NCBI RefSeq assembly: GCF_012955605.1
Contig: NZ_CP052135.1
Location: forward strand, 1,623,469 to 1,647,468
DNA length: 24,000 nt
Origin: Bacillus fonticola
Lineage (GTDB): Bacteria; Bacillota; Bacilli; Bacillales; JC228
Reading direction: 5' to 3'
How positions within the stretch are numbered: position 1 is the first letter of the stretch; every line of letters begins with the position of its first letter. Of this stretch, positions 1,625 to 23,970 are shown piece by piece. The notes under the pieces are model-generated. The model was not told the DNA's origin, ran no database searches, and saw only the letters and a program-made list of their open reading frames with translations. Made by a program: the position numbers and the translations under genes.

Positions 1625-2413
1625 TTATGCCTTAAATATAAGACTTAAAGAAATGCCAAAGATCCTCGCAGTCTGACGCAGCGACAACCCTTCGATTCCT
1701 TTTACCTGTCGCAGCACTTCATTTCTTTTTATCTTAGGTAAACTCTTTACTTGTGGAATTTCAATCGTACCAAGCAGTTTTTTGATTTCCAGCCGTGCTT
1801 CTTCATCAGATAATCTTTTTTTATCCACTCTTTCATCTAGGCATTTATCATTATTTTTTCTTTCATTAAATTCTTTAAATCTTTCTATAGCAATTGTAGG
1901 ATGCGTAGAAAACATCCTTAAAATATAATCAAAATCTAGTAAACTGTTAGGATAGGAACTTTTACCATAGTATCCACAACAGCTACTCCACCTCCATTCA
2001 TCCGCCTGACTAACCATTCCAGCTTTCACTGGATTTTGGTGGATATACCTCACAACTGTCAGTAAATATTTATTATTTTCAACACTTTCACTTTTGAACC
2101 GATCCTGAAATAGGTGTCCTATTGTCCTGTACTTCCAGTTGTAGTATCCGACATAGCTCACCCCCATCCGTTTCATAGTAATTGAAATGTCTTCATTGCC
2201 CTCTTTTATCAGCAGATGAACATGATTGGTCATCAAGCACCAAGCATATACGTTCAATCCACATTTATTTTTATGTTTTTTGAGAATATCAAGAAACTTT
2301 GTCCAGTCCTCATCATCATGGAATATTTCCTGCCTATTAGCTCCTCTCCAAATGATATGATAAATTCCAGTTTTACTTTTTACTCTAGCTCCACGGGGCA
2401 TCTCTATCACCAC
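1625..2413 (-). CDS. IS200-like/REP-associated Y1 (HUH) tyrosine transposase with C-terminal HTH
   Basis: HUH motif in LMTNHVHLLI, catalytic Tyr context VRYIHQNPVKAG, C-terminal HTH-like LSLRQTARIFGIS. The likely true start is the ATG at 2401 (MPRGARVKSK). Confidence 0.88.
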   Translation of the reverse strand: MVIEMPRGARVKSKTGIYHIIWRGANRQEIFHDDEDWTKFLDILKKHKNKCGLNVYAWCLMTNHVHLLIKEGNEDISITMKRMGVSYVGYYNWKYRTIGHLFQDRFKSESVENNKYLLTVVRYIHQNPVKAGMVSQADEWRWSSCCGYYGKSSYPNSLLDFDYILRMFSTHPTIAIERFKEFNERKNNDKCLDERVDKKRLSDEEARLEIKKLLGTIEIPQVKSLPKIKRNEVLRQVKGIEGLSLRQTARIFGISLSLIFKA

Positions 2414-3135: not shown

Positions 3136-3471
3136 CTTTGGTAGTCTATTTAACAAGCCTCTGTAAACGCTAAAATAGATTATTGAGATGAAAAGGTGAA
3201 ATGAATGTTTATAAATGTGCTTGGAGAAAAAGAAATGGGTGAGTGAAATGATATCGGATAGAAGAAAAGCAGATTTTGTGATTCTATATTCATATTCAAC
3301 ATCTAGTTCTGACTTCCTTCAATTATTCCTAGTAAATTAAAAAAGCAGAAAAAAATAAAGAACTTTGTCTCGGTTTACTATATTGGTAAAAATTAGGGTG
3401 GAACAAGACCCGTCCCCGTGTTTCCCGTGTTTCCCCTTCACACTAAGCATACCTTCATGTATAATAAGATA

Positions 3472-3600
3472 TAAATAAAGAGAGAAGTGTATCGACACTT
3501 CCCTCTGCACCTCTACCGTCAGGGTGGTGGTTGTCAATGAATTTTATTTCTTTTGAGAACCACCCTCTTGCTTCCTACGGCGCGGGGTGGTTTTCTCGTT
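3472..3600 (+). ncRNA. Predicted antisense RNA of small-basic-peptide module, copy B
   Basis: TTCACA, 17 nt spacer, TGTATAAT (TATAAT at 3460-3465). Same 5' hairpin and AACCACCC/GGGTGGTT terminator as copies A, C and D. Confidence 0.4.
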
Positions 3601-3660
3601 CTCTAGGACGTTTTTACGAAAAGAATGTGCGGTTACTTCACGCACCATTCCTTTCACAAC
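3544..3660 (-). pseudogene. 5'-truncated copy of the 49-aa basic peptide gene, copy B
   Basis: Encodes VVKGMVREVTAHSFRKNVLENEKTTPRRRKQEGGSQKK(stop). Start codon, RBS and promoter are lost at the duplication junction at 3660. Confidence 0.6.
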
Positions 3661-3743
3661 ATCTAGTTCTGACTTTCTTCAATTATTCCTAGTAAATTAA
3701 AAAAACAGAAAAAATAAAGAACTTTGTCTCTGTTTACTATATT

Positions 3744-3785
3744 GGTAAAAATTAGGGAAACACAAGAACCGTCCCCGTGTTTCCC
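3744..3785 (-). terminator. Rho-independent terminator after licR, built from a dispersed repeat
   Basis: Minus strand reads GGGAAACAC, a 13 nt loop, GTGTTTCCC, then TAATTTTTACC. It begins 3 nt after the licR stop codon. Confidence 0.55.
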
Positions 3786-3787
3786 CC

Positions 3788-5719
3788 TCACTCTAGCACA
3801 TGGATAAATTCTTCAAAGGTTTTCACACTGATTAACTTTTGAACAATCGGAGGATTCTCGATAATATTCCCTAATAAATCATACATTGATTGCAAGTCTT
3901 CGGTACTGTTTTTCTTTACACAAAGTAAACAAATAAATTGTACTAGCCTATCATTCCAATTAATAGGTTTATCTAATGTGCAAATAGCAAGAAATGTAGT
4001 TTCAGATTTTGGTGCAATGGGATGGGGAACTGCCACCAAATTACCAAAGGATGTAGGGGATATTCCCTCCCGTTCATACACGGCCTCGAGAAAAGTATCT
4101 TCGACTAATCCATTTTTATGCAATTGGTTATGCATAAATTCCAAAACCTCTTCTTTAGAATTAAAGCTTTTTCTTAAATACATGAGCTCTTTTTGGAAAT
4201 AACGATTTACACTCTGCTTGCTTTCAACTACAAAGTCCCTTATTTTCTTAAGGTCATTATCTCCCAAAATAGCATTTACCTCTACTACTGGTACAGGTAA
4301 ATCCCCTGAAATTGGAATGGAACTGACAATAAAATCAATATCGTTTAAATCAAGTTTATCAAGCTTATAATATTCCGTTGTACCAATTACATCAATTTCT
4401 CTACTGAATTTAGACTTTATCTTATAATAGATCAGTTTTGCTGTACCCAAACCGGAAGCACAAACGATCAAGCAGCGTTTAGGACCTGATTTTAATTTTT
4501 GCCTTTCCATTGCCGCTCCAATATGAAGCGCAAGATATCCGATCTCATTTTCATTAATTTTGGTTCCTGTATGTTCTTCTATCACAACTCCTGCTATGAT
4601 TCCCGCTTCAAATGCTAATGGATAGTTCTGTTTAATATCCTTAAGCATTGGGTTTCGTACATTCATTCCATATTTATAGCGATTGATCGAAGGTTTTAAG
4701 TGTAATCCCAAACCAATAATTAATTCTTTATCCAAACTTATTCCTAGATTAAATTCCGCTTCTATTTTTTCAAGCACTACCATGACTAATTGATACATAT
4801 CACCTTCTAAAACTTGTTCAACAACTTCATCAGCATCATTCGTTTGAGATAACATTTTTGTACCTAGTAAGTGAATGGCAATATATGCGATTTCAGCTTG
4901 GGGAAATTGAACATGAAAGGTATCTTCAACTTCCTTCACAATCTGTTTCGCTACTAAATATTCCCTCTGATCAGTAATAGATTGCATATCTGCTTGATAA
5001 AATGTCACATGATATCCACTTTTTATCCGTTTATAGGCGATTGCAATATGGATGAGGAGATTATTCAATGCAATATCTGATAAGGTTATTTTATTGTTCT
5101 CTATTTGTCTCATTATTATAGCCAAAATAGAATCCAAATCTGTTTTAGCCAAAGACGCTAGATGTGCTTCAACAGGATGATCACTTGTCTCCTCATTACG
5201 ATCGAATAAATATTCGGCCACACAGAAACGGCGTTTTAACTCGCTACCTCTAACAGTTAATCCATAATTAGGACGTGATTCCAGACGAATACCATATCCG
5301 CTCAATATATGTTTAACCTGTTTTAAATCATTTTGGATTGTTGATTTACTTACATACATTTCCTCAGCTAAATCATCAAGCTTTTCATACCCTTCACTTA
5401 ACAATAAGCGTTTTATTAAATAAGTTAACCGTTCTTCTGGCGATTTCGGTATAACTGTGCTATCAGAAACCTCTTCCTTAAAAACAGATTGTAAATATTT
5501 ACGGAACTTTAAAGCATCATCAATGAACAACTGATACCCTTTACCCATAATAGAATCGATATGTGCACCATTGTCGGAAATCGACGCATTAATACTTTTC
5601 ACGTCTTCCCTTGTAGTACGTGGTGTTACCTGATTTATATTCGCTAAATATTTTCCTGTGAGAGTAGTTTGTGCCGCCATTAATTCGCGTAGAACTGTTT
5701 TCATTCTGGAGTTCAACAT
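3788..5719 (-). CDS. licR: LicR/MtlR-type PRD-containing transcriptional activator (HTH, two PRDs, EIIB-like, EIIA-like)
   Basis: N-terminal HTH region, duplicated PRD-like segments, EIIB Cys context CLIVCASGLGTAKL, C-terminal EIIA-2-like VAVPHP. Start moved to ATG at 5719 (MLNSRMK), which has an AAGGAGA RBS. Confidence 0.85.
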   Translation of the reverse strand: MLNSRMKTVLRELMAAQTTLTGKYLANINQVTPRTTREDVKSINASISDNGAHIDSIMGKGYQLFIDDALKFRKYLQSVFKEEVSDSTVIPKSPEERLTYLIKRLLLSEGYEKLDDLAEEMYVSKSTIQNDLKQVKHILSGYGIRLESRPNYGLTVRGSELKRRFCVAEYLFDRNEETSDHPVEAHLASLAKTDLDSILAIIMRQIENNKITLSDIALNNLLIHIAIAYKRIKSGYHVTFYQADMQSITDQREYLVAKQIVKEVEDTFHVQFPQAEIAYIAIHLLGTKMLSQTNDADEVVEQVLEGDMYQLVMVVLEKIEAEFNLGISLDKELIIGLGLHLKPSINRYKYGMNVRNPMLKDIKQNYPLAFEAGIIAGVVIEEHTGTKINENEIGYLALHIGAAMERQKLKSGPKRCLIVCASGLGTAKLIYYKIKSKFSREIDVIGTTEYYKLDKLDLNDIDFIVSSIPISGDLPVPVVEVNAILGDNDLKKIRDFVVESKQSVNRYFQKELMYLRKSFNSKEEVLEFMHNQLHKNGLVEDTFLEAVYEREGISPTSFGNLVAVPHPIAPKSETTFLAICTLDKPINWNDRLVQFICLLCVKKNSTEDLQSMYDLLGNIIENPPIVQKLISVKTFEEFIHVLE

Positions 5720-10866: not shown

Positions 10867-11100
10867 TGTAATATGAGAAAATGCAGAGTAGAAATAAAAA
10901 GACCGTGGTAGATAATAGCACTACACACGGTCAAAGCAACCACATACCGCGGAATTAGCGGCTAACCTGTGAGTAAGAAATAGTCACCCAACTTGGGTCG
11001 GAGGGGTGGCTATTTCTTTTTGTTTACGGCGACAACGATAGCTACGATTGTTCCTGTATACACAGCCTGAAACGTCTGTGCAGCAATGACAATTGTAACA
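10867..11100 (-). pseudogene. Type I toxin/antisense locus, copy 2: toxin 5'-truncated, antisense RNA apparently intact
   Basis: Reads ..PVTIVIAAQTFQAVYTGTIVAIVVAVNKKK(stop at 11010-11012) with no start codon or RBS; it is cut by peptide module C. The plus-strand TGTAATAT -10 and shared terminator are retained. Confidence 0.5.
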
Positions 11101-11156
11101 GGGCACCGTCACTACTTTTCCTTCACACTAAGCATATCTTTATGTATAATGAGATA

Positions 11157-11285
11157 TAAATAAAGAGAGAAGTGTTTGACACTTCTCCCTGCAACCTCTA
11201 CCGCCAGGGTGGTGGTTGTCAAAAATTATTTACTTTTCTGAGAACCACCCTTTTGCTTGTGACGGCGTAGGGTGGTTTTCTTGTC
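11157..11285 (+). ncRNA. Predicted antisense RNA of small-basic-peptide module, copy C
   Basis: TTCACA, 17 nt spacer, TGTATAAT (TATAAT at 11145-11150). 5' hairpin. AACCACCCT/AGGGTGGTT stem followed by TTTCTTGT. Confidence 0.45.
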
Positions 11286-11375
11286 CTCTAGTACGTTTTT
11301 TCGAAAGAGAAATGCCGCACTTTCACGCATTACCCCTTTCAAAATTTCACGAACGACTTCAAGAAATGTTTCCAT
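11226..11375 (-). CDS. 49-aa basic small protein, copy C
   Basis: METFLEVVREILKGVMRESAAFLFRKNVLEDKKTTLRRHKQKGGSQKSK. GGAGGTGA RBS. Extended -10 TGTATAAT on the minus strand about 75 nt upstream. Confidence 0.6.
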   Translation of the reverse strand: METFLEVVREILKGVMRESAAFLFRKNVLEDKKTTLRRHKQKGGSQKSK

Positions 11376-11700
11376 GATTATCACCTCCCTCCCGATCCAA
11401 ATCGGAAAGAAGACAGACAACCAACCACCCTCACAATATTCAGTTGCACACTTCCATTATACACTCACTTATTGAAGATTACTAGAGAAACAAGAAACAT
11501 ACGTTCCCGTCCATAAGAGACTATTCAATTCACCCTTTTGTAAGGCTTATAAAGCGTTTATCTATTTTAACTATTTACTCGTTAATTAACAACCGTGAAA
11601 CAAGAGAGTTCGGGTGGTGCCTGTGAATTGCGCCCATGATAGTAGACACGAATAATTCAGGAAATCCATGACCATAATGGTGAAAAAAAGGAGCGATTCG

Positions 11701-14143: not shown

Positions 14144-14674
14144 TTGATTATTCCTTATGATTTCGAGATAGAGCTGAGTGAGTATGCTGTATTAGGAAAA
14201 GAGAATGATTTTCCAATGTTTGATCAATGTCCAAACTGTCAGTGTCCTTCACCAGGAAACATACATAGACATGGCTATTATTGGCGTTTTGGCGTGACGG
14301 AGGAGGAGACCGTTAGGGTTCCCATCTGCCGAATGAAATGCTTACAGTGTAAAGTGAGCTTATCCATCCTTCCGGACTTTTTCATTCCCTACTTTCAACA
14401 TACAATTCATACGATCTTACAGAGGGTTTATCAGCTATTACATGATAAGAAAGGAAAGAGTAGTCGACAATTACTAAGATTTCACCTAACGAGGTTCTGT
14501 AAGAGTCTAAAGTGGGTTCATACATTTCTAGTAACTTTAGGTGTGGTAAGCGGGTTTTCAGCAGATATAAAAAAAGAGGCCATAAAATATTTGAACCTGC
14601 TCCGAGATTTTGGCGAATCCACCTTCTTACGAAGGTCTTGGGGGCATAATTCATCATACTTTATGGCACATTAA
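14144..14674 (+). CDS. Cys-rich zinc-ribbon-like transposon accessory protein
   Basis: CPNCQC...C..C (CRMKCLQC) motifs. First gene of the element. From memory this resembles DUF6431-type proteins found ahead of Mu-like transposases in Firmicutes; this was not searched. Confidence 0.65.
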   Translation: MIIPYDFEIELSEYAVLGKENDFPMFDQCPNCQCPSPGNIHRHGYYWRFGVTEEETVRVPICRMKCLQCKVSLSILPDFFIPYFQHTIHTILQRVYQLLHDKKGKSSRQLLRFHLTRFCKSLKWVHTFLVTLGVVSGFSADIKKEAIKYLNLLRDFGESTFLRRSWGHNSSYFMAH

Positions 14675-14808
14675 TTCTACCATATTTTTAGCGATATAAA
14701 AAAATTGTTCATCCCACACACTTTTTTCATAGTCGGAAAACCCCGAAAAAAGTAGAATAATAACCATGGATGACCGGTCGTCCTTCTCACTAAAAGGAGG
14801 AAGATTCC

Positions 14809-16062
14809 ATGAATGAAAAAGAACGGGAACAAGTAGCCTTATTTCGGTATGGACTAATTGCCCCACTATTAAATGAACAGGTGGATGCCAAAGAATACTT
14901 TGGAGAGTTAGTAGGAAAGGTTCACTCCATTCCTTATTATGGAGAGCGAACCGTCGCAGAAAAAACGATGAAGGAATGGCTGCTTCATTACCGCAGACAT
15001 GGGTTTGAAGCATTAAAGCCGAAGAAACGGACAGACCGAGGAAATTCGAGAAGGTTATCGGCTGATGACCAAGATCAACTTCTCGAACTACGAAAAAAAA
15101 TTCTCCATATGCCCGTGAGTGTCTTCTATGAGCACCTCATTGAGCTAGGAGAAATAAAGAAAAATACAATATCATACTCTACTATAAACCGATTACTTAA
15201 AAAACACAATCTAGTAGGGAAAAGAATTGTCGCAACCCCTGAAAGAAAAAGGTTTGCCCATGAACGAGTCAATCATTTATGGCAGGGGGATCTGTCTCAC
15301 GGGCCTTACATTCCGATTGATGGCAAAAAGAAAAAGACGTTTCTAATCGCTTATATTGATGATTGTTCTCGTCTCGTTCCGTTTGGTCAGTTTTTCTCAT
15401 CAGAGAAATTCGACGGTGTAAGAGTCGTGACCAAAGAGGCCCTTCTTCGAAGGGGAAAGCCAACGATGATTTATGCCGATAATGGCAAGATTTATCGTTC
15501 AGAAACTCTTCAATATGCATGTGCTCAATTAGGGATAACGCTAGCTCACACACAGCCTTACGACCCTCGTGCGAAAGGCAAGATTGAAAGGCTCTTTAAA
15601 ACGATTCAAACGAGGTTCTATCCTTTACTCCAAGCAAAACCAGTAGACTCTTTAGAAGAGCTAAATGAACGGTTTTGGCGTTGGCTAGAAGAAGACTATC
15701 ATCGTCGTATTCATGCATCTTTAGATGGAAAGACTCCGCATGAAGTCTACCAATCTCAATTGGAGAACGTGACGCTTCTTGAGAATACAGCGATTCTAGA
15801 CACGATCTTTTTGAAGAGAGAACACCGAAAGGTGAAAGCCGATAGTACAATCACTTTAAACAAACAACTCTATGAGGTACCCCCACGTTTTATCGGACAA
15901 TCCATTGATGTCCGCTTTGATGAGACAGGCATTTTTGTATTTGAAGAGGATCAAAGGGTGGCTGAAGCAGTACCTGTATCAATGACAGACAATGCCAAAG
16001 CAAAACGAGTGCGTTCTCCCTTTACCTTAACGGACGAAAAGGAGGGGAACGACTATGTATAA
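14809..16062 (+). CDS. DDE (rve/Mu-type) transposase, TnsB/TniA-like
   Basis: N-terminal HTH EQVALFRYGLIAPLL. DDE candidates are WQGDLSH, IYADNGKIY and KGKIERLF. Mu-transposase-like C-terminal region. AGGAGG RBS. Confidence 0.88.
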   Translation: MNEKEREQVALFRYGLIAPLLNEQVDAKEYFGELVGKVHSIPYYGERTVAEKTMKEWLLHYRRHGFEALKPKKRTDRGNSRRLSADDQDQLLELRKKILHMPVSVFYEHLIELGEIKKNTISYSTINRLLKKHNLVGKRIVATPERKRFAHERVNHLWQGDLSHGPYIPIDGKKKKTFLIAYIDDCSRLVPFGQFFSSEKFDGVRVVTKEALLRRGKPTMIYADNGKIYRSETLQYACAQLGITLAHTQPYDPRAKGKIERLFKTIQTRFYPLLQAKPVDSLEELNERFWRWLEEDYHRRIHASLDGKTPHEVYQSQLENVTLLENTAILDTIFLKREHRKVKADSTITLNKQLYEVPPRFIGQSIDVRFDETGIFVFEEDQRVAEAVPVSMTDNAKAKRVRSPFTLTDEKEGNDYV

Positions 16063-16855
16063 GTCTTTCTATTCCTTGGCTCAAACACCATTTTCTAAAA
16101 ACTTGCGTTCGGCTGATGCCTTCCAATCAACTGACCACCAAGGTGCTCTTGGAGCACTCGATTACTTGAAGAAATCAAGAGGAATGGGTCTTCTTATCGG
16201 TGATCCCGGTGTGGGCAAAACCTTTACGTTGCGAACGTTTAAAGAATCATTGAATCCCTCGCTGTACCATGTCGTCTATTTCCCTCTTTCGACAGGAGGC
16301 GTTATGGACTTCTATCGAGGCTTAGTTTACGGTTTAGGAGAAGAGCCGAAATTCCGTAAAGTGGATGTATTTCGCCAAATTCAGCAAGGAATTGAACGAA
16401 TGGCCCATGAACGGAAGATGACCCCTGTTTTCATACTCGATGAAATGCATTTGTCTAAAGATGCGTTTCTACAAGACTTAGCGATTCTATTTAACTTTCA
16501 GATGGACTCAACGAATCCATTTATCTTGATTTTAGCTGGGTTGCCACACCTAAAGACACGCTTGTCTATTAATCATCACAGACCCCTATCCCAGCGATTG
16601 ATAATGAAATATGAGATACAGCCTCTAGTGAAGGAAGAAGTAGCCGAGTATATCGACCACCATATGAAGCTAGCTGGAGCTAAGATGCCTATTTTTACGG
16701 AGGCAGCTATTGAGGCGATTGCTTTACGGTCACAAGGACGACCTCGTGTTATTAACACGTTAACCATTAATAGCTTACTATTTGGAACGCAGCAGAAAAA
16801 AGAACAGATCGATGAAGAAGTGGTACGCTTAGCGATCGAGGATAGTGGGTTATGA
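16055..16855 (+). CDS. TniB/ExeA-like AAA+ ATPase
   Basis: Walker A GDPGVGKT and Walker B FILDEMH. Overlaps the transposase stop by 8 nt. Confidence 0.88.
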   Translation: MYKSFYSLAQTPFSKNLRSADAFQSTDHQGALGALDYLKKSRGMGLLIGDPGVGKTFTLRTFKESLNPSLYHVVYFPLSTGGVMDFYRGLVYGLGEEPKFRKVDVFRQIQQGIERMAHERKMTPVFILDEMHLSKDAFLQDLAILFNFQMDSTNPFILILAGLPHLKTRLSINHHRPLSQRLIMKYEIQPLVKEEVAEYIDHHMKLAGAKMPIFTEAAIEAIALRSQGRPRVINTLTINSLLFGTQQKKEQIDEEVVRLAIEDSGL

Positions 16856-17112
16856 TGACAAAAGGAATTATGATCTATAATCAGGAAGAACAAGAATGGA
16901 GATTATGGATTGGGCATCAAGACTACTGGATTCAACAAGGTTATTTCTTTGAACTATTCATTCAAGGGCAGTGTTTTCAAGCCTATCTTCAGAAGGATTT
17001 AGACTGGTTTATCACGATAGAGGATGATGTCAAACTAGTGCTGCACATACAGGAAGTCTATAAAGTAAGCGTTCAGCTAGAGGATTTTATAAAAGTCGAA
17101 GACCCGTTTTAG
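16852..17112 (+). CDS. Small transposon-associated protein (86 aa)
   Basis: ATGA overlap with the ATPase gene, followed directly by a terminator. Function unknown. Confidence 0.55.
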   Translation: MMTKGIMIYNQEEQEWRLWIGHQDYWIQQGYFFELFIQGQCFQAYLQKDLDWFITIEDDVKLVLHIQEVYKVSVQLEDFIKVEDPF

Positions 17113-17126: not shown

Positions 17127-17312
17127 ATTTTAAGAACTGGATTAATTTGAACAGAGTTTTGCATATTCCGGAATAACGTGGAAAACTGAGCACATTATTT
17201 CATATTTTCTCCCGCAATAATTTGAAAATGAGGTGCTGAAATAATGTGCTCGTTTACAATCATCCCATCCAATTTTTTTGCCTATACGAATCTTGTTATG
17301 TATAATGGGCAT

Positions 17313-17445
17313 ATAATAAAAGAGAGAAGTGTTCGAGCACACTTTCCCTACAGCCTCTACCGTCAGGGTGGTGGTTGTCAAAATATTTAATGTTTATCTT
17401 GAGAACCACCCTCTTGCTTGTGACGGCGTAGGGTGGTTTTCTTGT
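17313..17445 (+). ncRNA. Predicted antisense RNA of small-basic-peptide module, copy D
   Basis: TGTATAAT (TATAAT at 17301-17306), 5' hairpin, AACCACCCT/AGGGTGGTT stem followed by TTTCTTGT. Confidence 0.45.
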
Positions 17446-17536
17446 CTTCTAGTACGTTTTTCCGAAAGAGAAATGCGGCAATTTCACGCACTGCCCCTTT
17501 CAAAATTTCGCGAACGAATTCAAGAAATGTTTCCAT
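17387..17536 (-). CDS. 49-aa basic small protein, copy D
   Basis: METFLEFVREILKGAVREIAAFLFRKNVLEDKKTTLRRHKQEGGSQDKH. GGAGGTGA RBS. Minus-strand TGTATAAT upstream. Confidence 0.6.
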   Translation of the reverse strand: METFLEFVREILKGAVREIAAFLFRKNVLEDKKTTLRRHKQEGGSQDKH

Positions 17537-17702
17537 GATTATCACCTCCCTTCCGATCCAAATCGGAAAGAAGACTAACAATCAACCACCCTCACAATAT
17601 TCAGCTGTATCCCTCTATTATACACTCTTGTATAGAAGTTTACTAGAGAAAAAGGAAGCATATGTTTCTAATACATAAGAAATCTCTGTCCTGCTTCTGC
17701 AC

Positions 17703-19928
17703 TCACCTACCCAGTCTTGCCGCGCGATCAATCTTGTTCAATACAAAAATTTCCTGTTTTTCTTTGTCTGTTAACTCCCTTTCTGACAAGTTGTCAATAA
17801 GTTGATCTATTATCTTTTTTTCGTTTCTAGTCATATCTTTGTAGGTCCCACGCAATAATCCAACAATGGAAAACCACATGCCTACATTTGGAAGGAGACC
17901 TGCTCCGCCGAGTACGTAGTTTTTCCAATCTATTTTTTTGTGACTATTATCCTGACTAATTTCGTAAAGTAGTTGGTTATATTCATCTACTTTCTCTTTG
18001 CGTTCATTAGCTGTCAGTTGTTCAAAGTCAGAAAGCATATTTCTTAATGTTTCTCTAGTATGATGACGGTCTGCAATCTGATCAAATTCTGTTATAGGTA
18101 AGGACTCTGCTACATCGAACAATTTTAAGCTATGGGATTCTTGTCGGTGTAGTTGCTTTAACTTCATTAAAGTTTGTTGCTGCTCGCTGTGAGGGTACTT
18201 ATAGCTGTTTAAAATGTCGCCGACGATGTTAGCCACTCCAATGTTGCTATAAACTTTTCGTCCATCTGTTTCTTGAAATGGATAGTAGGTTGCATTTAAA
18301 GCATTAGAAATATAAATAGGAGAACTATTGGCTAGGAATTCGAAGTTGACTTTTTCATTTCCTTTAATGGATGGAATGAATTGATGAACTCCAATGTTAG
18401 CCAGTTGAAACGGACTATCAAAAGTAAGTATCTCCATACTTTTATTTTTGGCTTGAATCGGCCAGGTTAGCATTTTAAAAAGGTCTTCGCTTGAGACGTT
18501 TATTTGTTCTGAAATTTTATCACAAATAATCCGTAATAAATTCCATCCGTCTGAACCAAGATGATTCATGATAGACTGCTGGGCGATCTCTGTAAATTCT
18601 ACCGCTAAAAGTGCATGGATCCCTCTTCTAGTAACTAATGAAAACTCATCAATAGCAAAAGCATTCTTAATTAGCTCCTGATTGTACCGTTTTTCGTCAT
18701 TAACTAGGAAAAGTTTCATTCTACCTCTTCGAATAAGTTCCCAAAGTTCCTCTATCTGCATCCCTTGTTGTTCTAGCCACATTCTTGTATTCTTCTTATC
18801 ATCCATTTCTAATGGTGGAGCAATATAAACGACATCATACAAAAGAAGATGATTCCGCAAATTCAAATTTGAAAAGACAGAAAAATCTAGGTAGCATTTT
18901 GTTACATGTTCTTGGTAAAAATACAGCTTGTCTTTCGTATACTCCCCTGTATATATTTTCTCCGCATTTCTAAACCACAAATCAGCATCTCGAGTTGAAA
19001 ATGGCATCGTGCGGTATGTCTGAACGTGGAGGGCCCTTTCATTTACTGGAGGCGTAGAAACCCCTTGATTCCTTATATGAACTGTTTCGATCGAAGGATT
19101 AAGCTTACAAATAAGTTTTTCAATATTCTCCCGCTCTTCCAAAGTTAAGGTGCTTGAACCGGCGATTGAAACATGCGTAACTTTATCTCGAAATAAAACA
19201 GAACCGACTTTTTGACTAGCATATCGTTGGAGAACAGTATCCCAATCCGAAGAACTTGTAAGACTTCCGTTATGCACCTCAAAGGTATACTTCCCCCATT
19301 TTAATTTCAAAGCATGGTGAAAATTATATAATTCCTGCGGTGAAGCGTGCACAGTAATGATCTTATAGTGGCTCCCAGTTCTATCAGCTATAACCGACTT
19401 AATAAAAACAAAGCTTTTACTTATTTCAACGATTTTCTCCCAGTAGTTTTCTAAGACAAATCTAATGATTATATTTGAAAAGGGGGTTACCGTCTGAGTA
19501 AACTCTCGCAATTCATGCAACATGCCCTGCTTTTGCTCAGCATCATCTACGACTTCTATAATTAGTTCGTGATATGTATAGTCCACGTATAAGCCTTCAA
19601 ACTTCAAAGCGTGAAACTTACTTTCAAGAATTGTTCTCAACTGCATGATCGTTAACGGGAACCCTCTGAATCCTGAAACTGGGTTTGGAATAGAAGGAAT
19701 CTTTTTATTGTATTTCTCCGGTACGTAAGTCGATAGTGCTATTGCTTCTGCAGCGGGTCGAATTGAATAATCAAACGTTTTAACCATTTCATCAAAATAC
19801 TCCAGCGAAGAAAGGCAGACGATGACATAAGCCCGATGGTCAACCTCATAAATTTCCGTCTCTAAACCTAAAAACTCGTTCCTTAATCTAAAATCTACTC
19901 TTTGCACTTGATAGTCAAAACTTTGCAT
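17703..19928 (-). CDS. Large hypothetical protein (741 aa), no recognisable catalytic or NTPase motif
   Basis: Long uninterrupted ORF with an AAGAAGGGG RBS. Hydrophobic segment YVLGGAGLLPNVGMWFSIVGLL (residues 671-692, nt 17853-17918) preceded by a long E/K/Q-rich helical region. A terminator lies upstream, so the gene is probably monocistronic. Confidence 0.85.
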   Translation of the reverse strand: MQSFDYQVQRVDFRLRNEFLGLETEIYEVDHRAYVIVCLSSLEYFDEMVKTFDYSIRPAAEAIALSTYVPEKYNKKIPSIPNPVSGFRGFPLTIMQLRTILESKFHALKFEGLYVDYTYHELIIEVVDDAEQKQGMLHELREFTQTVTPFSNIIIRFVLENYWEKIVEISKSFVFIKSVIADRTGSHYKIITVHASPQELYNFHHALKLKWGKYTFEVHNGSLTSSSDWDTVLQRYASQKVGSVLFRDKVTHVSIAGSSTLTLEERENIEKLICKLNPSIETVHIRNQGVSTPPVNERALHVQTYRTMPFSTRDADLWFRNAEKIYTGEYTKDKLYFYQEHVTKCYLDFSVFSNLNLRNHLLLYDVVYIAPPLEMDDKKNTRMWLEQQGMQIEELWELIRRGRMKLFLVNDEKRYNQELIKNAFAIDEFSLVTRRGIHALLAVEFTEIAQQSIMNHLGSDGWNLLRIICDKISEQINVSSEDLFKMLTWPIQAKNKSMEILTFDSPFQLANIGVHQFIPSIKGNEKVNFEFLANSSPIYISNALNATYYPFQETDGRKVYSNIGVANIVGDILNSYKYPHSEQQQTLMKLKQLHRQESHSLKLFDVAESLPITEFDQIADRHHTRETLRNMLSDFEQLTANERKEKVDEYNQLLYEISQDNSHKKIDWKNYVLGGAGLLPNVGMWFSIVGLLRGTYKDMTRNEKKIIDQLIDNLSERELTDKEKQEIFVLNKIDRAARLGR

Positions 19929-20052
19929 GGATACCCCTTCTTAACGTCCAGAACTCGAAATTCCTTTGGATCCATTCTCTTCCCACAAGCATGACTCATC
20001 CCCCTCATTCATAATTTTTTCCGTTACTAACTCTACAACAAAAATTCCGGAG

Positions 20053-20086
20053 AGAAAAAAATAAACCCACTAAGTGTCTCAGCGGG
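20053..20086 (-). terminator. Rho-independent terminator insulating the 741-aa gene from upstream transcription
   Basis: Minus strand reads CCCGCTG agacact TAGTGGG (includes G-U pairs) followed by TTTATTTTTTTCTC. Confidence 0.5.
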
Positions 20087-20232
20087 CAATTCTCCTACAT
20101 AATACACAGTAAACTCTACACTAACATCGGGTCATCATTTTTCTTGGGGAAGATAAACATGAGTGTATTTGTTTCTAAGACTTTGTATAGCCCTGGCTTT
20201 TTGCCAAATACCTCATTCCCAGCTTTGTTTCA

Positions 20233-20521: not shown

Positions 20522-20755
20522 TCAGCATTCCTTTATCGTTAACTTCTTCAACGTACAAGTGTTGGAATTATAGTAAACAGCCCAATCAAACTTACTCCAG
20601 CCATACTTTGAACTAATTTGATTTAGGTCTTCCCTTGTCACGGAACTTACATCAGTTGGGTATATTTCTCCAGATTCTCTATGCTCTAAGCATGGAGTAT
20701 ATTGATCTACGATGATTGACACTTCATGAGTGAACTCACTGTTGATTCCTTTCAT
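20522..20755 (-). pseudogene. N-terminal fragment of a GNAT-like acetyltransferase
   Basis: MKGINSEFTHEVSIIVDQYTPCLEHRESGEIYPTDV...GWSKFDW. From memory this resembles the N-terminus of a Firmicute GNAT family. The acetyl-CoA-binding part is absent and there is no RBS. Confidence 0.45.
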
Positions 20756-21177: not shown

Positions 21178-22221
21178 TTAGATACGTATATGTGCGTTCA
21201 ACGATTGATTAAGCGTGTATCCCATTAATGTTTTTTCAACAATGTGGAAGTCAAACAACTTATCAATGCCATTTATAATATCCTCTTCAGGAAACCTTTT
21301 GGCTTTATCTCCTGACCAGCGTTTGAATTCATCTACAATTTCAGCTTGTGTTAGTTCTTCTTTTTCTTTTAATAAATACGTAATTGTAGATAAACATTCT
21401 AATTCATGATTGGTGTTGAATGTGTTAACGTATTCTGCTGCTTTTTTAATAAATGGTTGTAATGTTGCAAGCTTTAATTCAACATGACCACTTACAATTT
21501 TATTATACAAAATACCATAGGCCTCTTGTGTACTTTTGACACCATGATACTTCTGAAATTCCTTAATGTTCCTGCTGATAATAGCAATAGAATTATCGTA
21601 TGGCCCGTATTTATGTCTTGTGAAATTGAAATAATGCTCCCCAGAAAAAACATCCATATAGAAAGCTGTCTTTTGAAGTCGTAACGTATCAAATTTCTTG
21701 AGGTGGTGTTTGATATCCATTAAAACAAGCCCAGATAAACTTAAATTGGGTTCAGATTTTGGTTGAGATACGTAATTTTGAGACGGTTCGTATATAAGAA
21801 TTTGAACATTTTCATCAACAGCGGATAACTTTTTCTCGATTAACGCTTTCACATCATTCCAAATTAAACCGCCATTTCCACTTCCTAAAGGTGGAATAGC
21901 AATCGACTGAATACCCAATTGCTCTATTAACTTTACAAGCTCATCCAGTCCTTTTTCTACATATTCAATCTTAGACTTCGCTCTCCACTTATTTTTTGTC
22001 GGAAAGTTAATAATGATTTTACCGTCTTCTTTAAAATAATGTAGCTTCCCAATTTGCAATTCTCCTGTTTTACATGCTTTGACATAATCTTTATTATTGT
22101 TAGGGAACTGCATTTTGAACTGATAAGCAATACCTTTCCCCATATAACCTTCACAATTCACGGTATTCACCAAGGCATCAGCTGATGATTTTAATAAATC
22201 ACCTGTAGTATAGATAATCAC
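21178..22221 (-). CDS. darG: DarG antitoxin (N-terminal macrodomain plus C-terminal DarT-binding region)
   Basis: Macrodomain signature GDLLKSSADALVNTVNCEGYMGKGIAYQFK ... IAIPPLGSGNGGL. GTG start with a GAGAGGTGA RBS, 31 nt after darT. Confidence 0.88.
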   Translation of the reverse strand: MIIYTTGDLLKSSADALVNTVNCEGYMGKGIAYQFKMQFPNNNKDYVKACKTGELQIGKLHYFKEDGKIIINFPTKNKWRAKSKIEYVEKGLDELVKLIEQLGIQSIAIPPLGSGNGGLIWNDVKALIEKKLSAVDENVQILIYEPSQNYVSQPKSEPNLSLSGLVLMDIKHHLKKFDTLRLQKTAFYMDVFSGEHYFNFTRHKYGPYDNSIAIISRNIKEFQKYHGVKSTQEAYGILYNKIVSGHVELKLATLQPFIKKAAEYVNTFNTNHELECLSTITYLLKEKEELTQAEIVDEFKRWSGDKAKRFPEEDIINGIDKLFDFHIVEKTLMGYTLNQSLNAHIRI

Positions 22222-22252: not shown

Positions 22253-22846
22253 CTATAGCCAGTGACCTATATCCACAAACGGTGGCATTTTGTAAATTCC
22301 TTTTGATTGCAATTTCTTCTTAACCATCGCCCTTGTTGCTTCATTTTTTACATAAATACATTGAAAAAGCTTGGCTGGAACAACTAAAGGCGTCAAACAT
22401 TCAGCCATTTTTACATTCTTAGTATATCGTTCTTCCGTTCCTGGTGTGTGCATCGTATCCCAATCAATTGCTTCAAAGCCCTCACCATAGTCATATAATT
22501 GATAATTTTCTTTATTGTTAAGTGGATGTATTGGTAGTATTTTGAAATTATTTTCTTTGGCTAGCCCTCTCGTAATACAAATATATATGAATTCTTCATC
22601 TGCATATGTGCTTTTTACAGCAACATCGAATGAGGAATACGGATGGAAATGAAAAGGTATATATTCATCCAATCCAAGTTCTGTTCGCTTAGTAATGATT
22701 TCTTGGTTTGCAATATCAAAAAATCGAACATCACTATCTTTCACTAATTTTCTTGATACTAAACCGTGTTCCAATATGGAGTCTAGGTTCGACAATCTTG
22801 TCAAATGATATAAGAGTTTGCTCGTTTTTATATTATCAATTGCCAT
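22253..22846 (-). CDS. darT: DarT ssDNA ADP-ribosyltransferase toxin (DUF4433)
   Basis: LYHLTRLSNLDSILEHGL (the YHxT start), IPFHFHP, and catalytic-Glu context KMAECLT comparable to the QAEFLV of characterised DarT. Toxin-first gene order. Confidence 0.85.
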   Translation of the reverse strand: MAIDNIKTSKLLYHLTRLSNLDSILEHGLVSRKLVKDSDVRFFDIANQEIITKRTELGLDEYIPFHFHPYSSFDVAVKSTYADEEFIYICITRGLAKENNFKILPIHPLNNKENYQLYDYGEGFEAIDWDTMHTPGTEERYTKNVKMAECLTPLVVPAKLFQCIYVKNEATRAMVKKKLQSKGIYKMPPFVDIGHWL

Positions 22847-23061: not shown

Positions 23062-23558
23062 TTAAAAGATAAGATTCGCAGAAACGCCTAAGATCCTTGC
23101 AGCCTGACGTTGTGATAGTCCATCTATTCCTTTTATTTTTCTCAAGACTTCATTTCTTTTTAACCTAGGTAAACTCTTTACTTGCGCTATCTCAATCGAA
23201 CCTAGTGTCTGTCTAATTTCTAATCTCGCATCTTCATCCATTTTTCTACTATTATTAATGCGTTCATCTAGACACTTATCATGATTCAGCTCTTCATTAA
23301 ATGCTTTAAATTTCTCTTTTGCAATTGTTCTATCTCCAGGAAACATCCCTAATAGTAAGTCTTTATCCAACTAATCACTCGGAAAATAACTTTTATCATA
23401 GTATCCAAGACAACTGCTCCACTTCCCTTCATCAACCTTATCTACGACACCAGCTTTTACTGGGTTTTGATGAATATACCTTTTAACCGTTAGTAAATAA
23501 TTATCCGTTTCTACATTTTCACTTTTGAATCACTTTTCACCCTAGCTCTTCGGGGCAT
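23062..23558 (-). pseudogene. Decayed copy of the Y1 (HUH) transposase gene
   Basis: Reads MPRRARVKS, then an internal deletion removing the HUH core, then ..FKSENVETDNYLLTVKRYIHQNPVKAG..(stop)..LDKDLLLGMF...GLSQRQAARILGVSANLIF. Track ORF 23062-23370 is its C-terminal part. Confidence 0.8.
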
Positions 23559-23564
23559 TTCTTC

Positions 23565-23970
23565 ACTCCTCAAGATAAAGTTCAAAATATGGGATGATAA
23601 ATGTCTACCGCCAATCCTTTCTGCCCATTACCAGAATGTAACATTGTCATAGCTTCCCAGATGGGTTTGTCATAGGTAGGTGTAATACTTAATGGAATGT
23701 CTGAGGTGTGAGATGTAGTAAATAAAGAAGGGGTGAATTAACTTGAAAAGACTCGATGACTTCATGTAATGTTTCAACAAACCGGATCTCCAATCATTTG
23801 AATAAAAAGCAGCCATCACCTGATGCTTCGACTCCTTCGCAAAGCGTCTGGGAGACCTACAATACAAATTCCTTCTACATCAGATAACAGCTGCACATCA
23901 GCTTGTATTCAGTACCTATTCAGTACCACTGCATCCCTTTTGCCCAATGCTTTCTATCACAGCAGCCCAT
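23565..23970 (-). pseudogene. Heavily decayed comM/yifB-like N-terminal fragment
   Basis: From the ATG at 23970, with multiple frameshifts: MAAVIESIGQKG.., ..VGLPDAFAKESKHQVMAAFYSND.. parallels VGLPDAAVKESKDRVMAALFAND of the intact copy. It abuts the Y1 transposase pseudogene. Confidence 0.5.

Follow-up and report, generated by a model that had tools for sequence, protein, structure and literature searches.

An undescribed protein family carried by mobile DNA, with a candidate single-gene defence factor in Bacillus fonticola

The longest open reading frame (ORF) in a 24,000-nucleotide stretch of the Bacillus fonticola genome (contig NZ_CP052135.1, positions 1,623,469 to 1,647,468; hereafter the window) encodes a protein of 741 amino acids (aa), the runner-up in the ORF list having 652 aa. 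We find that islands, plasmids and integrative elements carry this gene (17703-19928, minus strand) without companion genes and amid defence genes, and that it evidently belongs to a sizeable, widespread family that is yet undescribed and unnamed. An earlier reading of the bare sequence (the original prediction) had picked it out as the longest ORF and as an orphan without recognisable signature, and had proposed an undescribed single-gene defence or abortive-infection factor. Most of the sequence features described in that reading are indeed present. As a candidate of that kind the gene survives the refutation tests that were run, and the sequence data lend the proposal partial support.

The explanation we prefer, tentatively and at a probability of about 0.42, is a defence gene that works by itself and moves horizontally: its product, from an undescribed family, would act against phages or mobile elements, probably by abortive infection. 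We favour it because the protein has no known family or fold, the gene stands alone, its spread is patchy and crosses phyla, known defence genes are among its neighbours, and its Escherichia coli relative occupies a swappable slot. It is a credible, good defence candidate, of which many exist.

The gene and its family

Judged by its relatives, the ORF is a genuine and conserved gene, because homologs (48% and 41% identity) align with its product from end to end, an exhaustive hidden Markov model (HMM) search recovers 556 representatives, and AlphaFold2 (AF2) models the protein with a mean predicted local distance difference test score (pLDDT) of 82.5 and a predicted template-modelling (TM) score (pTM) of 0.81. 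The product is identical to WP_170007307.1, a B. fonticola “hypothetical protein” (exact look-up).

The protein has no significant match in Pfam, NCBIfam, PADLOC or the sequences of the PDB, in keeping with the original claim that it carries no recognisable signature. The same databases gave chance-level matches only when searched with a 106-sequence profile of the family, which is seeded by the window protein, and with about 30 other members. Across the 5027 models of PADLOC-DB v2.0.0, the window protein hits no family at E<=1 and 8 of the 9 other members tested have no match at E<=0.1; the ninth, P0006, has weak Csa3/CARF-type matches confined to its N-terminal extension. Thus the profile and structure searches suggested with the original prediction returned no housekeeping or already described family. 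Searching the literature by accession, PHROG id and locus tag likewise yielded no functional study of any member.

A word-indexed search of 5.8 billion proteins returned 7 relatives, even when the profile was used. When 1.84 billion cluster representatives were searched exhaustively with the HMM, 556 passed E<=1e-3, of which 195 also passed E<=1e-30; each represents a cluster at 50% identity, so the label “orphan” has to be given up. Members P0001, P0002 and P0003 match profile positions 1-634 or 1-635 (E ~1e-259), and end-to-end alignment holds for over 100 further proteins. A typical member has ~620 aa. The window protein, P0001, P0002 and P0024 are of a long form (~748 aa), whose residues ~140-260 are present in a few percent of aligned members (alignment occupancy 0.03-0.13 over residues 141-260). 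A separate subfamily carries an N-terminal extension of ~250-340 aa (L003 4404-7884; L021 2201-5696), and the extension of P0006 has a weak Csa3-like winged-helix match.

The distribution is patchy and covers Bacillota, Negativicutes and Gammaproteobacteria, on chromosomal islands and plasmids. A genome scan returned 3 loci and a viral scan none, and three family members had no tblastn match in 50,697 phage genome records. We count this absence from the searched phage genomes in favour of a defence role. Residues 313-658 of the window protein do match profile positions 200-528 of 613 of PHROG 36744 (no function; E 2e-17). A related protein therefore exists in the (pro)virus set behind PHROGs; the match itself is partial.

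Predicted architecture and conserved residues

The protein is cytoplasmic and lacks a signal peptide. We modelled it with AF2 from the 106-sequence alignment, and a Foldseek search of the model against PDB and BFVD found no neighbour at E<=1e-3; its predicted fold is thus without a recognised neighbour in solved structures. The model agrees with the secondary-structure outline given in the original prediction: the N-terminal third is alpha/beta, residues 581-661 form long helices and a hydrophobic stretch spans 671-692. The parts of the protein are as follows (all encoded on the minus strand).

Residues 1-128 (19545..19928): conserved pair of small alpha/beta modules, extending to ~160 in the model; pLDDT mostly 81-98, ~97 in the first module
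Residues ~130-300 (19029..19541): extra alpha/beta modules, largely the long-form insertion; pLDDT 30-77
Residues 305-452 (18573..19016): core alpha/beta subdomain; pLDDT 86-98
Residues 453-580 (18189..18572): helical subdomain and three-strand meander; pLDDT 91-98
Residues 581-661 (17946..18188): three long charged helices (581-603, 612-636 and 640-661 in the AF2 model) with 10 K/R and 16 D/E; R643 conserved
Residues 671-692 (17853..17918): Gly/Ala/Leu-rich hydrophobic segment YVLGGAGLLPNVGMWFSIVGLL with a central P680; pLDDT <50 over 672-698
Residues 701-741 (17706..17828): C-terminal tail of conserved helices with one short strand; beyond the low-confidence loop, pLDDT is 73-88

Conservation, counted here and below among the 106 aligned members, is strongest in the core subdomain, in which four short predicted parallel strands alternate with helices. 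R358 (106/106) and P372 are invariant, W318, G328, C345 (101/106) and R435 (99/106) are near-invariant, and D348, E412, R414 and R434 are further conserved. Most of the conserved polar residues of the core probably sit at or just past the C-terminal ends of the strands, a placement read from predicted secondary structure. In parallel-sheet domains these strand ends are the usual ligand site. Because the core arginines are better conserved than the acidic residues, the alignment speaks for a phosphate-bearing ligand being bound rather than for metal-dependent catalysis. For the same reason we dropped PIN-like and Toprim-like nuclease assignments; a Cys-His protease was dropped as well, the Cys and His being misplaced for such folds.

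The adjoining subdomain (residues 453-580) carries W489-P490, E530, the motif HIAHALxATYFPF and L573. The first residue of this motif, His539 in 94 of the 106 members, is Tyr only in the window protein (codon at 18312-18314) and its two closest relatives, P0001 and P0002. Position 416, Asp in 80/106, is Asn in the window protein (codon at 18681-18683). These two substitutions may reflect altered or lost activity in the long-form clade. Every listed invariant or near-invariant residue of the family is otherwise present in the window protein (R16, T24, W318, G328, C345, R358, P372, R435, P490 and L730).

In the N-terminal modules the conserved residues are R10, D12, R16 (100/106), T24 (103/106), F52, P70 and G89. 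These modules give the sole resemblance seen in the fold search, which is to KH domains (NusA, archaeal CPSF, ribosomal uS3) and to the PrgH/MxiG ring-building modules of type III secretion inner-membrane rings (Foldseek probability <=0.98; target-normalised TM-score ~0.35, maximum 0.36; best E 7.8e-3). The E-values are not significant, however, identity is 6-17% and the rest of the protein is unmatched. Residues 1-160, as read from the sequence, contain no GXXG loop, and unlike those of PrgH/MxiG-type rings the N-terminal modules here are cytoplasmic, with neither a signal peptide nor an N-terminal anchor. The idea that the modules are sequence repeats of one another was abandoned, as hhalign gave no signal.

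The hydrophobic segment lies at 671-692, where the original prediction had placed it, but it is only marginally hydrophobic. Its best Kyte-Doolittle mean over 19 residues is 1.38 in the window protein and has a median of 1.48 in the family, with 31% of members reaching 1.6, the mean over ~19 residues that we took as the usual transmembrane threshold. The position of the segment is conserved, as it is the most hydrophobic 19-residue window in 72 of the 106 members, and P680 is kept in 91. A simple single-pass anchor is argued against because conserved, confidently modelled helices come after the segment. We instead read the segment as a putative hairpin, re-entrant or monotopic, or as a loop that can be released, rather than as a single transmembrane pass. 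Both flanks would then lie on the cytoplasmic side, because the tail past the segment is conserved and confidently modelled and its terminal strand needs a pairing partner. This tail has the motif LxKIxRxAxL, with L730 in 102/106 members, A737 in 89/106 and a strand at 737-739. Its 12 K/R are set against 10 D/E, so the description of a basic tail does not hold. The architecture of a sensor plus a membrane effector, as originally suggested, could still apply, with the marginal segment and the modelled helices beyond it speaking against a simple anchor.

Genomic setting of the family and of the window locus

We surveyed the context of 14 informative loci, which amount to ~3% of the family. An integrase, recombinase, transposase, relaxase or plasmid backbone is present at 9 of them, and 8 of the 14, as a raw count, have a known defence-type or toxin gene within 10 kb.

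Window (B. fonticola): DarTG
L001 (Heyndrickxia): Mrr and two reverse transcriptases (RTs)
L003: type I restriction-modification system interleaved with an OLD-TOPRIM/UvrD (Gabija-like) pair
L004: RT-trypsin (RT-protease) matching retron type XI models
L014 (Photobacterium plasmid): RnlA and Hok
L039: AbiLi (E 7e-61) and DUF3226
L040: ThsB-like TIR (E 2e-33)
L045: SIR2_2 and caspase

A census of 134 neighbouring ORFs includes 4 AAA_21/AriA-like proteins, 3 RhuM, 3 reverse transcriptases, 2 DUF4238, 2 Bro-N and 2 integrases, and is thus of a similarly accessory character. An all-against-all BLAST of these 134 neighbours found no conserved partner gene, with one exception. The description “single gene” therefore holds, and as far as the neighbouring sequences tell, a family member is a lone gene. 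The exception is a 200-aa ORF directly upstream of two long-form members with an N-terminal extension (L003 and L021; 59% identity); nowhere else in the family did we see a conserved partner.

Searching with the family profile (hmmsearch) also places members in well-known enterobacteria. These are WP_000995609.1 of E. coli, including Nissle 1917 (E 7e-48), and WP_001521074.1 of Salmonella, which is Q8ZMP3 of LT2 (E 2e-47); the Photobacterium plasmid member scores E ~1e-43. From gene order, Q8ZMP3 is probably STM2761, ‘putative inner membrane protein’, and NCBI annotates the Salmonella member as a membrane protein, by prediction only. The E. coli and Salmonella proteins match the family along almost their entire length. 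Like the window protein they carry the hydrophobic segment near the C-terminus along with the core motifs, and they are encoded by lone genes, beside integrases. They differ from it in being only ~22-26% identical, in having the short form (~610-625 aa, without residues ~130-260) and in keeping, in HMM alignments, the family His where the window protein has Tyr539.

In E. coli, the most telling case, the gene directly follows the integrase of a chromosomal mobilisable island with pilV, bfpA, traD and mobQ, which presumably resembles the ROD21-type islands and also carries PDC-M62 A/B and DUF4238, counted here as defence neighbours within 10 kb. Most of the query region is held by 189 of 5426 complete E. 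coli genomes, Nissle 1917 among them, and 572 of the 5426 have any match to it, the integrase and pilV flanks included. In other strains (L042, L043 and L044) the slot between integrase and pilV (L016 11056-15788) is filled otherwise: (i) by a “dsDNA nuclease domain” protein of 567 aa that hits LmuA/HamA models (Lamassu/Hachiman-like; E 2.5e-11), (ii) by three small genes, including one for a DUF1878 protein, or (iii) by a VOC-family protein. The integrase-pilV slot is thus a swappable cargo site.

The Salmonella member lies between two integrase remnants (L013 7368-9242, an IncHI2 plasmid copy of the LT2 region). The gene falls in the STM2758-STM2773 stretch adjoining fljBA, which has been repeatedly deleted in monophasic S. 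4,[5],12:i:- lineages with no cost reported (PMC7767384).

In the window itself, the gene, its signals and its nearest neighbours are arranged as follows.

17703-19928, minus strand: the 741-aa ORF, intact, with an ATG start and its stop codon at 17703-17705
19934-19940, minus strand: Shine-Dalgarno (SD) sequence GAAGGGG, 5 nt before the ATG, as read from the sequence
20055..20087, minus strand: intrinsic-terminator-like hairpin and T-run (terminator scan), ending the upstream transcription unit
21178-22221, minus strand: DarG (PADLOC model, E 3e-100)
22253-22846, minus strand: DarT (PADLOC model, E 1.4e-39)
14144-17112, plus strand: intact Mu/Tn552-like transposition unit, ~600 bp downstream of the 3' end of the 741-aa ORF

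The gene appears to be an independent unit, having its own upstream terminator both in the window and in L004. The window hairpin (20087-20065, minus strand; terminator scan) has a 10-pair stem with 5 GC pairs, followed by TTATTTTTTT. Of the transcription unit that had been predicted, the terminator and the gene's own ribosome-binding site are there, but the stretch from the hairpin to the start codon yielded no consensus sigma-70 promoter. The promoter expected shortly past the 3' end is also present, as an extended -10 promoter TGTATAAT at 17617-17624, ~80 nt past the stop codon, and forms part of a repeated small cassette. Across the start of the gene lies a 25-codon upstream ORF (MLVGREWIQRNFEFWTLRRGIHAKF; 19915-19992, minus strand), with a strong SD sequence GAGGGGGA ~7 nt before its ATG, which overlaps the 741-aa ORF by 14 nt in a different frame. 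The closest homologs (L004 and L001) have no counterpart of it upstream, and the overlap may mean translational coupling or chance.

DarTG lies upstream, 1250 bp separating the end of DarG from the start of the 741-aa ORF, in agreement with the 1.25 kb given before. The interval holds solely short ORFs without family match and repeat fragments, which earlier had been called gene debris. The window glycosidase, oxidoreductase and DarG are exactly WP_170007297, WP_170007301 and WP_170007309. Although the original prediction had taken the proximity of DarTG to be meaningful, it proved incidental. We rejected a functional tie because DarTG occurs at the window locus only and is absent from all other family loci examined.

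On the other side of the gene, the Mu/Tn552-like unit encodes a DUF6431 protein, an rve and Mu-transposase-C transposase, an AAA_22/ExeA ATPase and a DUF5348 protein; it lies on the strand opposite to the 741-aa ORF, with the small repeated cassette in between. A near-identical second copy of its ATPase (WP_170008482) is found elsewhere in the B. fonticola genome, and therefore the element is multicopy. Pieces of IS3 and Y1 transposases lie farther out in the window, so that transposons flank the locus as had been described. A Y1 (IS200-like) transposase-family gene at 1625-2413 (minus strand) recurs as a fragment at 23062-23370 (minus strand), where 300 nt of its 3' part, at 71% identity, lie in direct orientation 21.4 kb away. 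Other short repeats also pair the window ends (264-310 with 23791-23837; 748-819 with 20566-20637). Such repeats may therefore mark the limits of the variable region or have shaped it.

The repeated cassette is ~380 nt long and occurs in four copies of the same orientation (850-1330, 3420-3800, 11100-11600 and 17260-17720, read on the minus strand), the second being 5'-truncated. A full copy consists of the extended -10 promoter, an SD sequence GGGAGGTGA, a 48-codon ORF (METFLEFVRE...KTTLRRHKQEGGSQ) and a highly conserved 3' block, in which a convergent promoter of the same sequence lies on the opposite strand. By its layout the cassette looks like a sense/antisense (type I toxin-antitoxin-like) module; against this, the peptide it encodes is amphipathic and basic rather than hydrophobic. 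It has no match in Rfam or Pfam. A functional tie between the cassette and the 741-aa gene was rejected, the cassette being present four times in the window independently of the gene.

Competing explanations and what the family may mean

Single-protein defence factors with a membrane-inserting segment include the transmembrane effectors of CBASS and Pycsar and the lactococcal Abi proteins with one hydrophobic helix. Like these membrane-segment factors, the 741-aa protein comes from a gene that stands alone, with no partner, in defence islands or on mobile elements, and it joins a large cytoplasmic body to a short C-terminal hydrophobic element. It differs from them in that no signal-producing enzyme is encoded upstream of the gene and no PADLOC model matches. 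Known transmembrane effectors have clear transmembrane helices, whereas here there is one marginal, proline-broken segment and a conserved folded tail.

If the protein does act in defence, the arginine-rich crevice of its core (R358, R414, R434 and R435, with D348 and E412) would bind a phosphate-bearing ligand, nucleic acid or nucleotide, which could be either trigger or substrate. The hydrophobic segment would form a re-entrant hairpin, which would either tether the protein to the membrane's inner face or enter the membrane itself. Activation, possibly with oligomerisation via the N-terminal modules, would then damage the membrane or the bound substrate, and the infected cell would be stopped. 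A far more specific proposal, which we consider improbable, is that the family forms a new class of single-protein immune effector with an unseen fold. An arginine-lined alpha/beta sensor would detect phage-derived nucleic acid or nucleotide, the N-terminal region would assemble in the manner of ring-building modules, and proline-kinked hydrophobic hairpins, displayed in many copies by the resulting complex, would breach the inner membrane from the cytoplasm. Such a protein would be pore-forming or membrane-disrupting, and unrelated to gasdermins, holins and known transmembrane effectors.

Several of our observations weigh against a defence role. The neighbour census also holds housekeeping genes, the neighbourhood at L002 (Anaerosporomusa) is ordinary and mostly housekeeping, and the count of 8 in 14 loci comes without a background rate. 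On the homologs' neighbourhoods, then, the original expectation is borne out in so far as the homologs are mostly carried by mobile elements, with known defence genes beside them; enrichment over background does not follow from the count. The hydrophobic segment, being marginal, could be a buried loop, and if the family is enzymatic, the window protein with its Tyr539 and Asn416 may be a divergent or inactive member. Lastly, adjacency to an integrase could equally well reflect a role in the element's own biology. We regard it as rather unlikely that the protein is a non-defence accessory of this sort, serving exclusion, stabilisation or addiction, or the control of excision or transfer, as part of the toolkit kept beside the integrase. 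The gene does lie directly beside an integrase or recombinase in E. coli, Salmonella, Heyndrickxia, L008/L009 and L045, it occurs on plasmids, and the neighbour census adds two further integrases. In the E. coli island, however, it is dispensable, the same integrase and pilV flanking other cargo, and core functions of an element are normally kept with it and not swapped. Nor is there a consistent type of element: members are found in tyrosine and serine recombinase elements, in transposons, on plasmids and at loci without a mobility gene.

It is also unlikely that the protein is a defence or toxin enzyme whose alpha/beta core acts on nucleic acid or a nucleotide while the hydrophobic segment serves as a loop, structural or autoinhibitory, and not as a membrane element. 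The conserved R358, R435, R414, R434, D348, E412, D416 and C345 at or near the ends of the parallel-sheet strands, with H539 in the adjoining subdomain, would suit an active site; the marginal hydrophobicity and the conserved helices past the segment, which probably pack back on the body, would suit such a loop. But no nuclease, NADase, protease or kinase profile matches, no structure does so either, and the lower conservation of the acidic residues fits binding better than metal-dependent catalysis. The window protein itself has Y539 and N416, and the NCBI label of the Salmonella member, itself a prediction, is membrane protein. Very improbable, finally, is an ordinary membrane-associated protein of physiology or virulence that lies in mobile regions by chance, such as a Salmonella type III secretion substrate. 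STM2761 did score highly in a sequence-based computational predictor of type III secreted effectors (PMC2668754), and the mostly housekeeping neighbours at L002 would agree with an ordinary role. Against this stand the patchy presence of the gene (189 of the 5426 E. coli genomes), its spread over Gram-positive and Gram-negative bacteria that have no type III secretion, its almost constant location in variable or mobile DNA, and the repeated loss of the Salmonella region at no reported cost.

If the defence reading is true, the 741-aa protein would stand for a single-gene family of immune proteins, widespread and with a fold not seen before, comprising at least 556 clusters at 50% identity in Gram-positive and Gram-negative bacteria. 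The integrase-pilV slot of E. coli would then be a defined site of swappable cargo in which more systems could be sought. Since members are present in the workhorse strains E. coli Nissle 1917 and Salmonella LT2, the candidate can be tested cheaply. Should the defence reading be wrong, this would still be a large, structurally novel family of mobile-element cargo that merits a Pfam entry and a solved structure.

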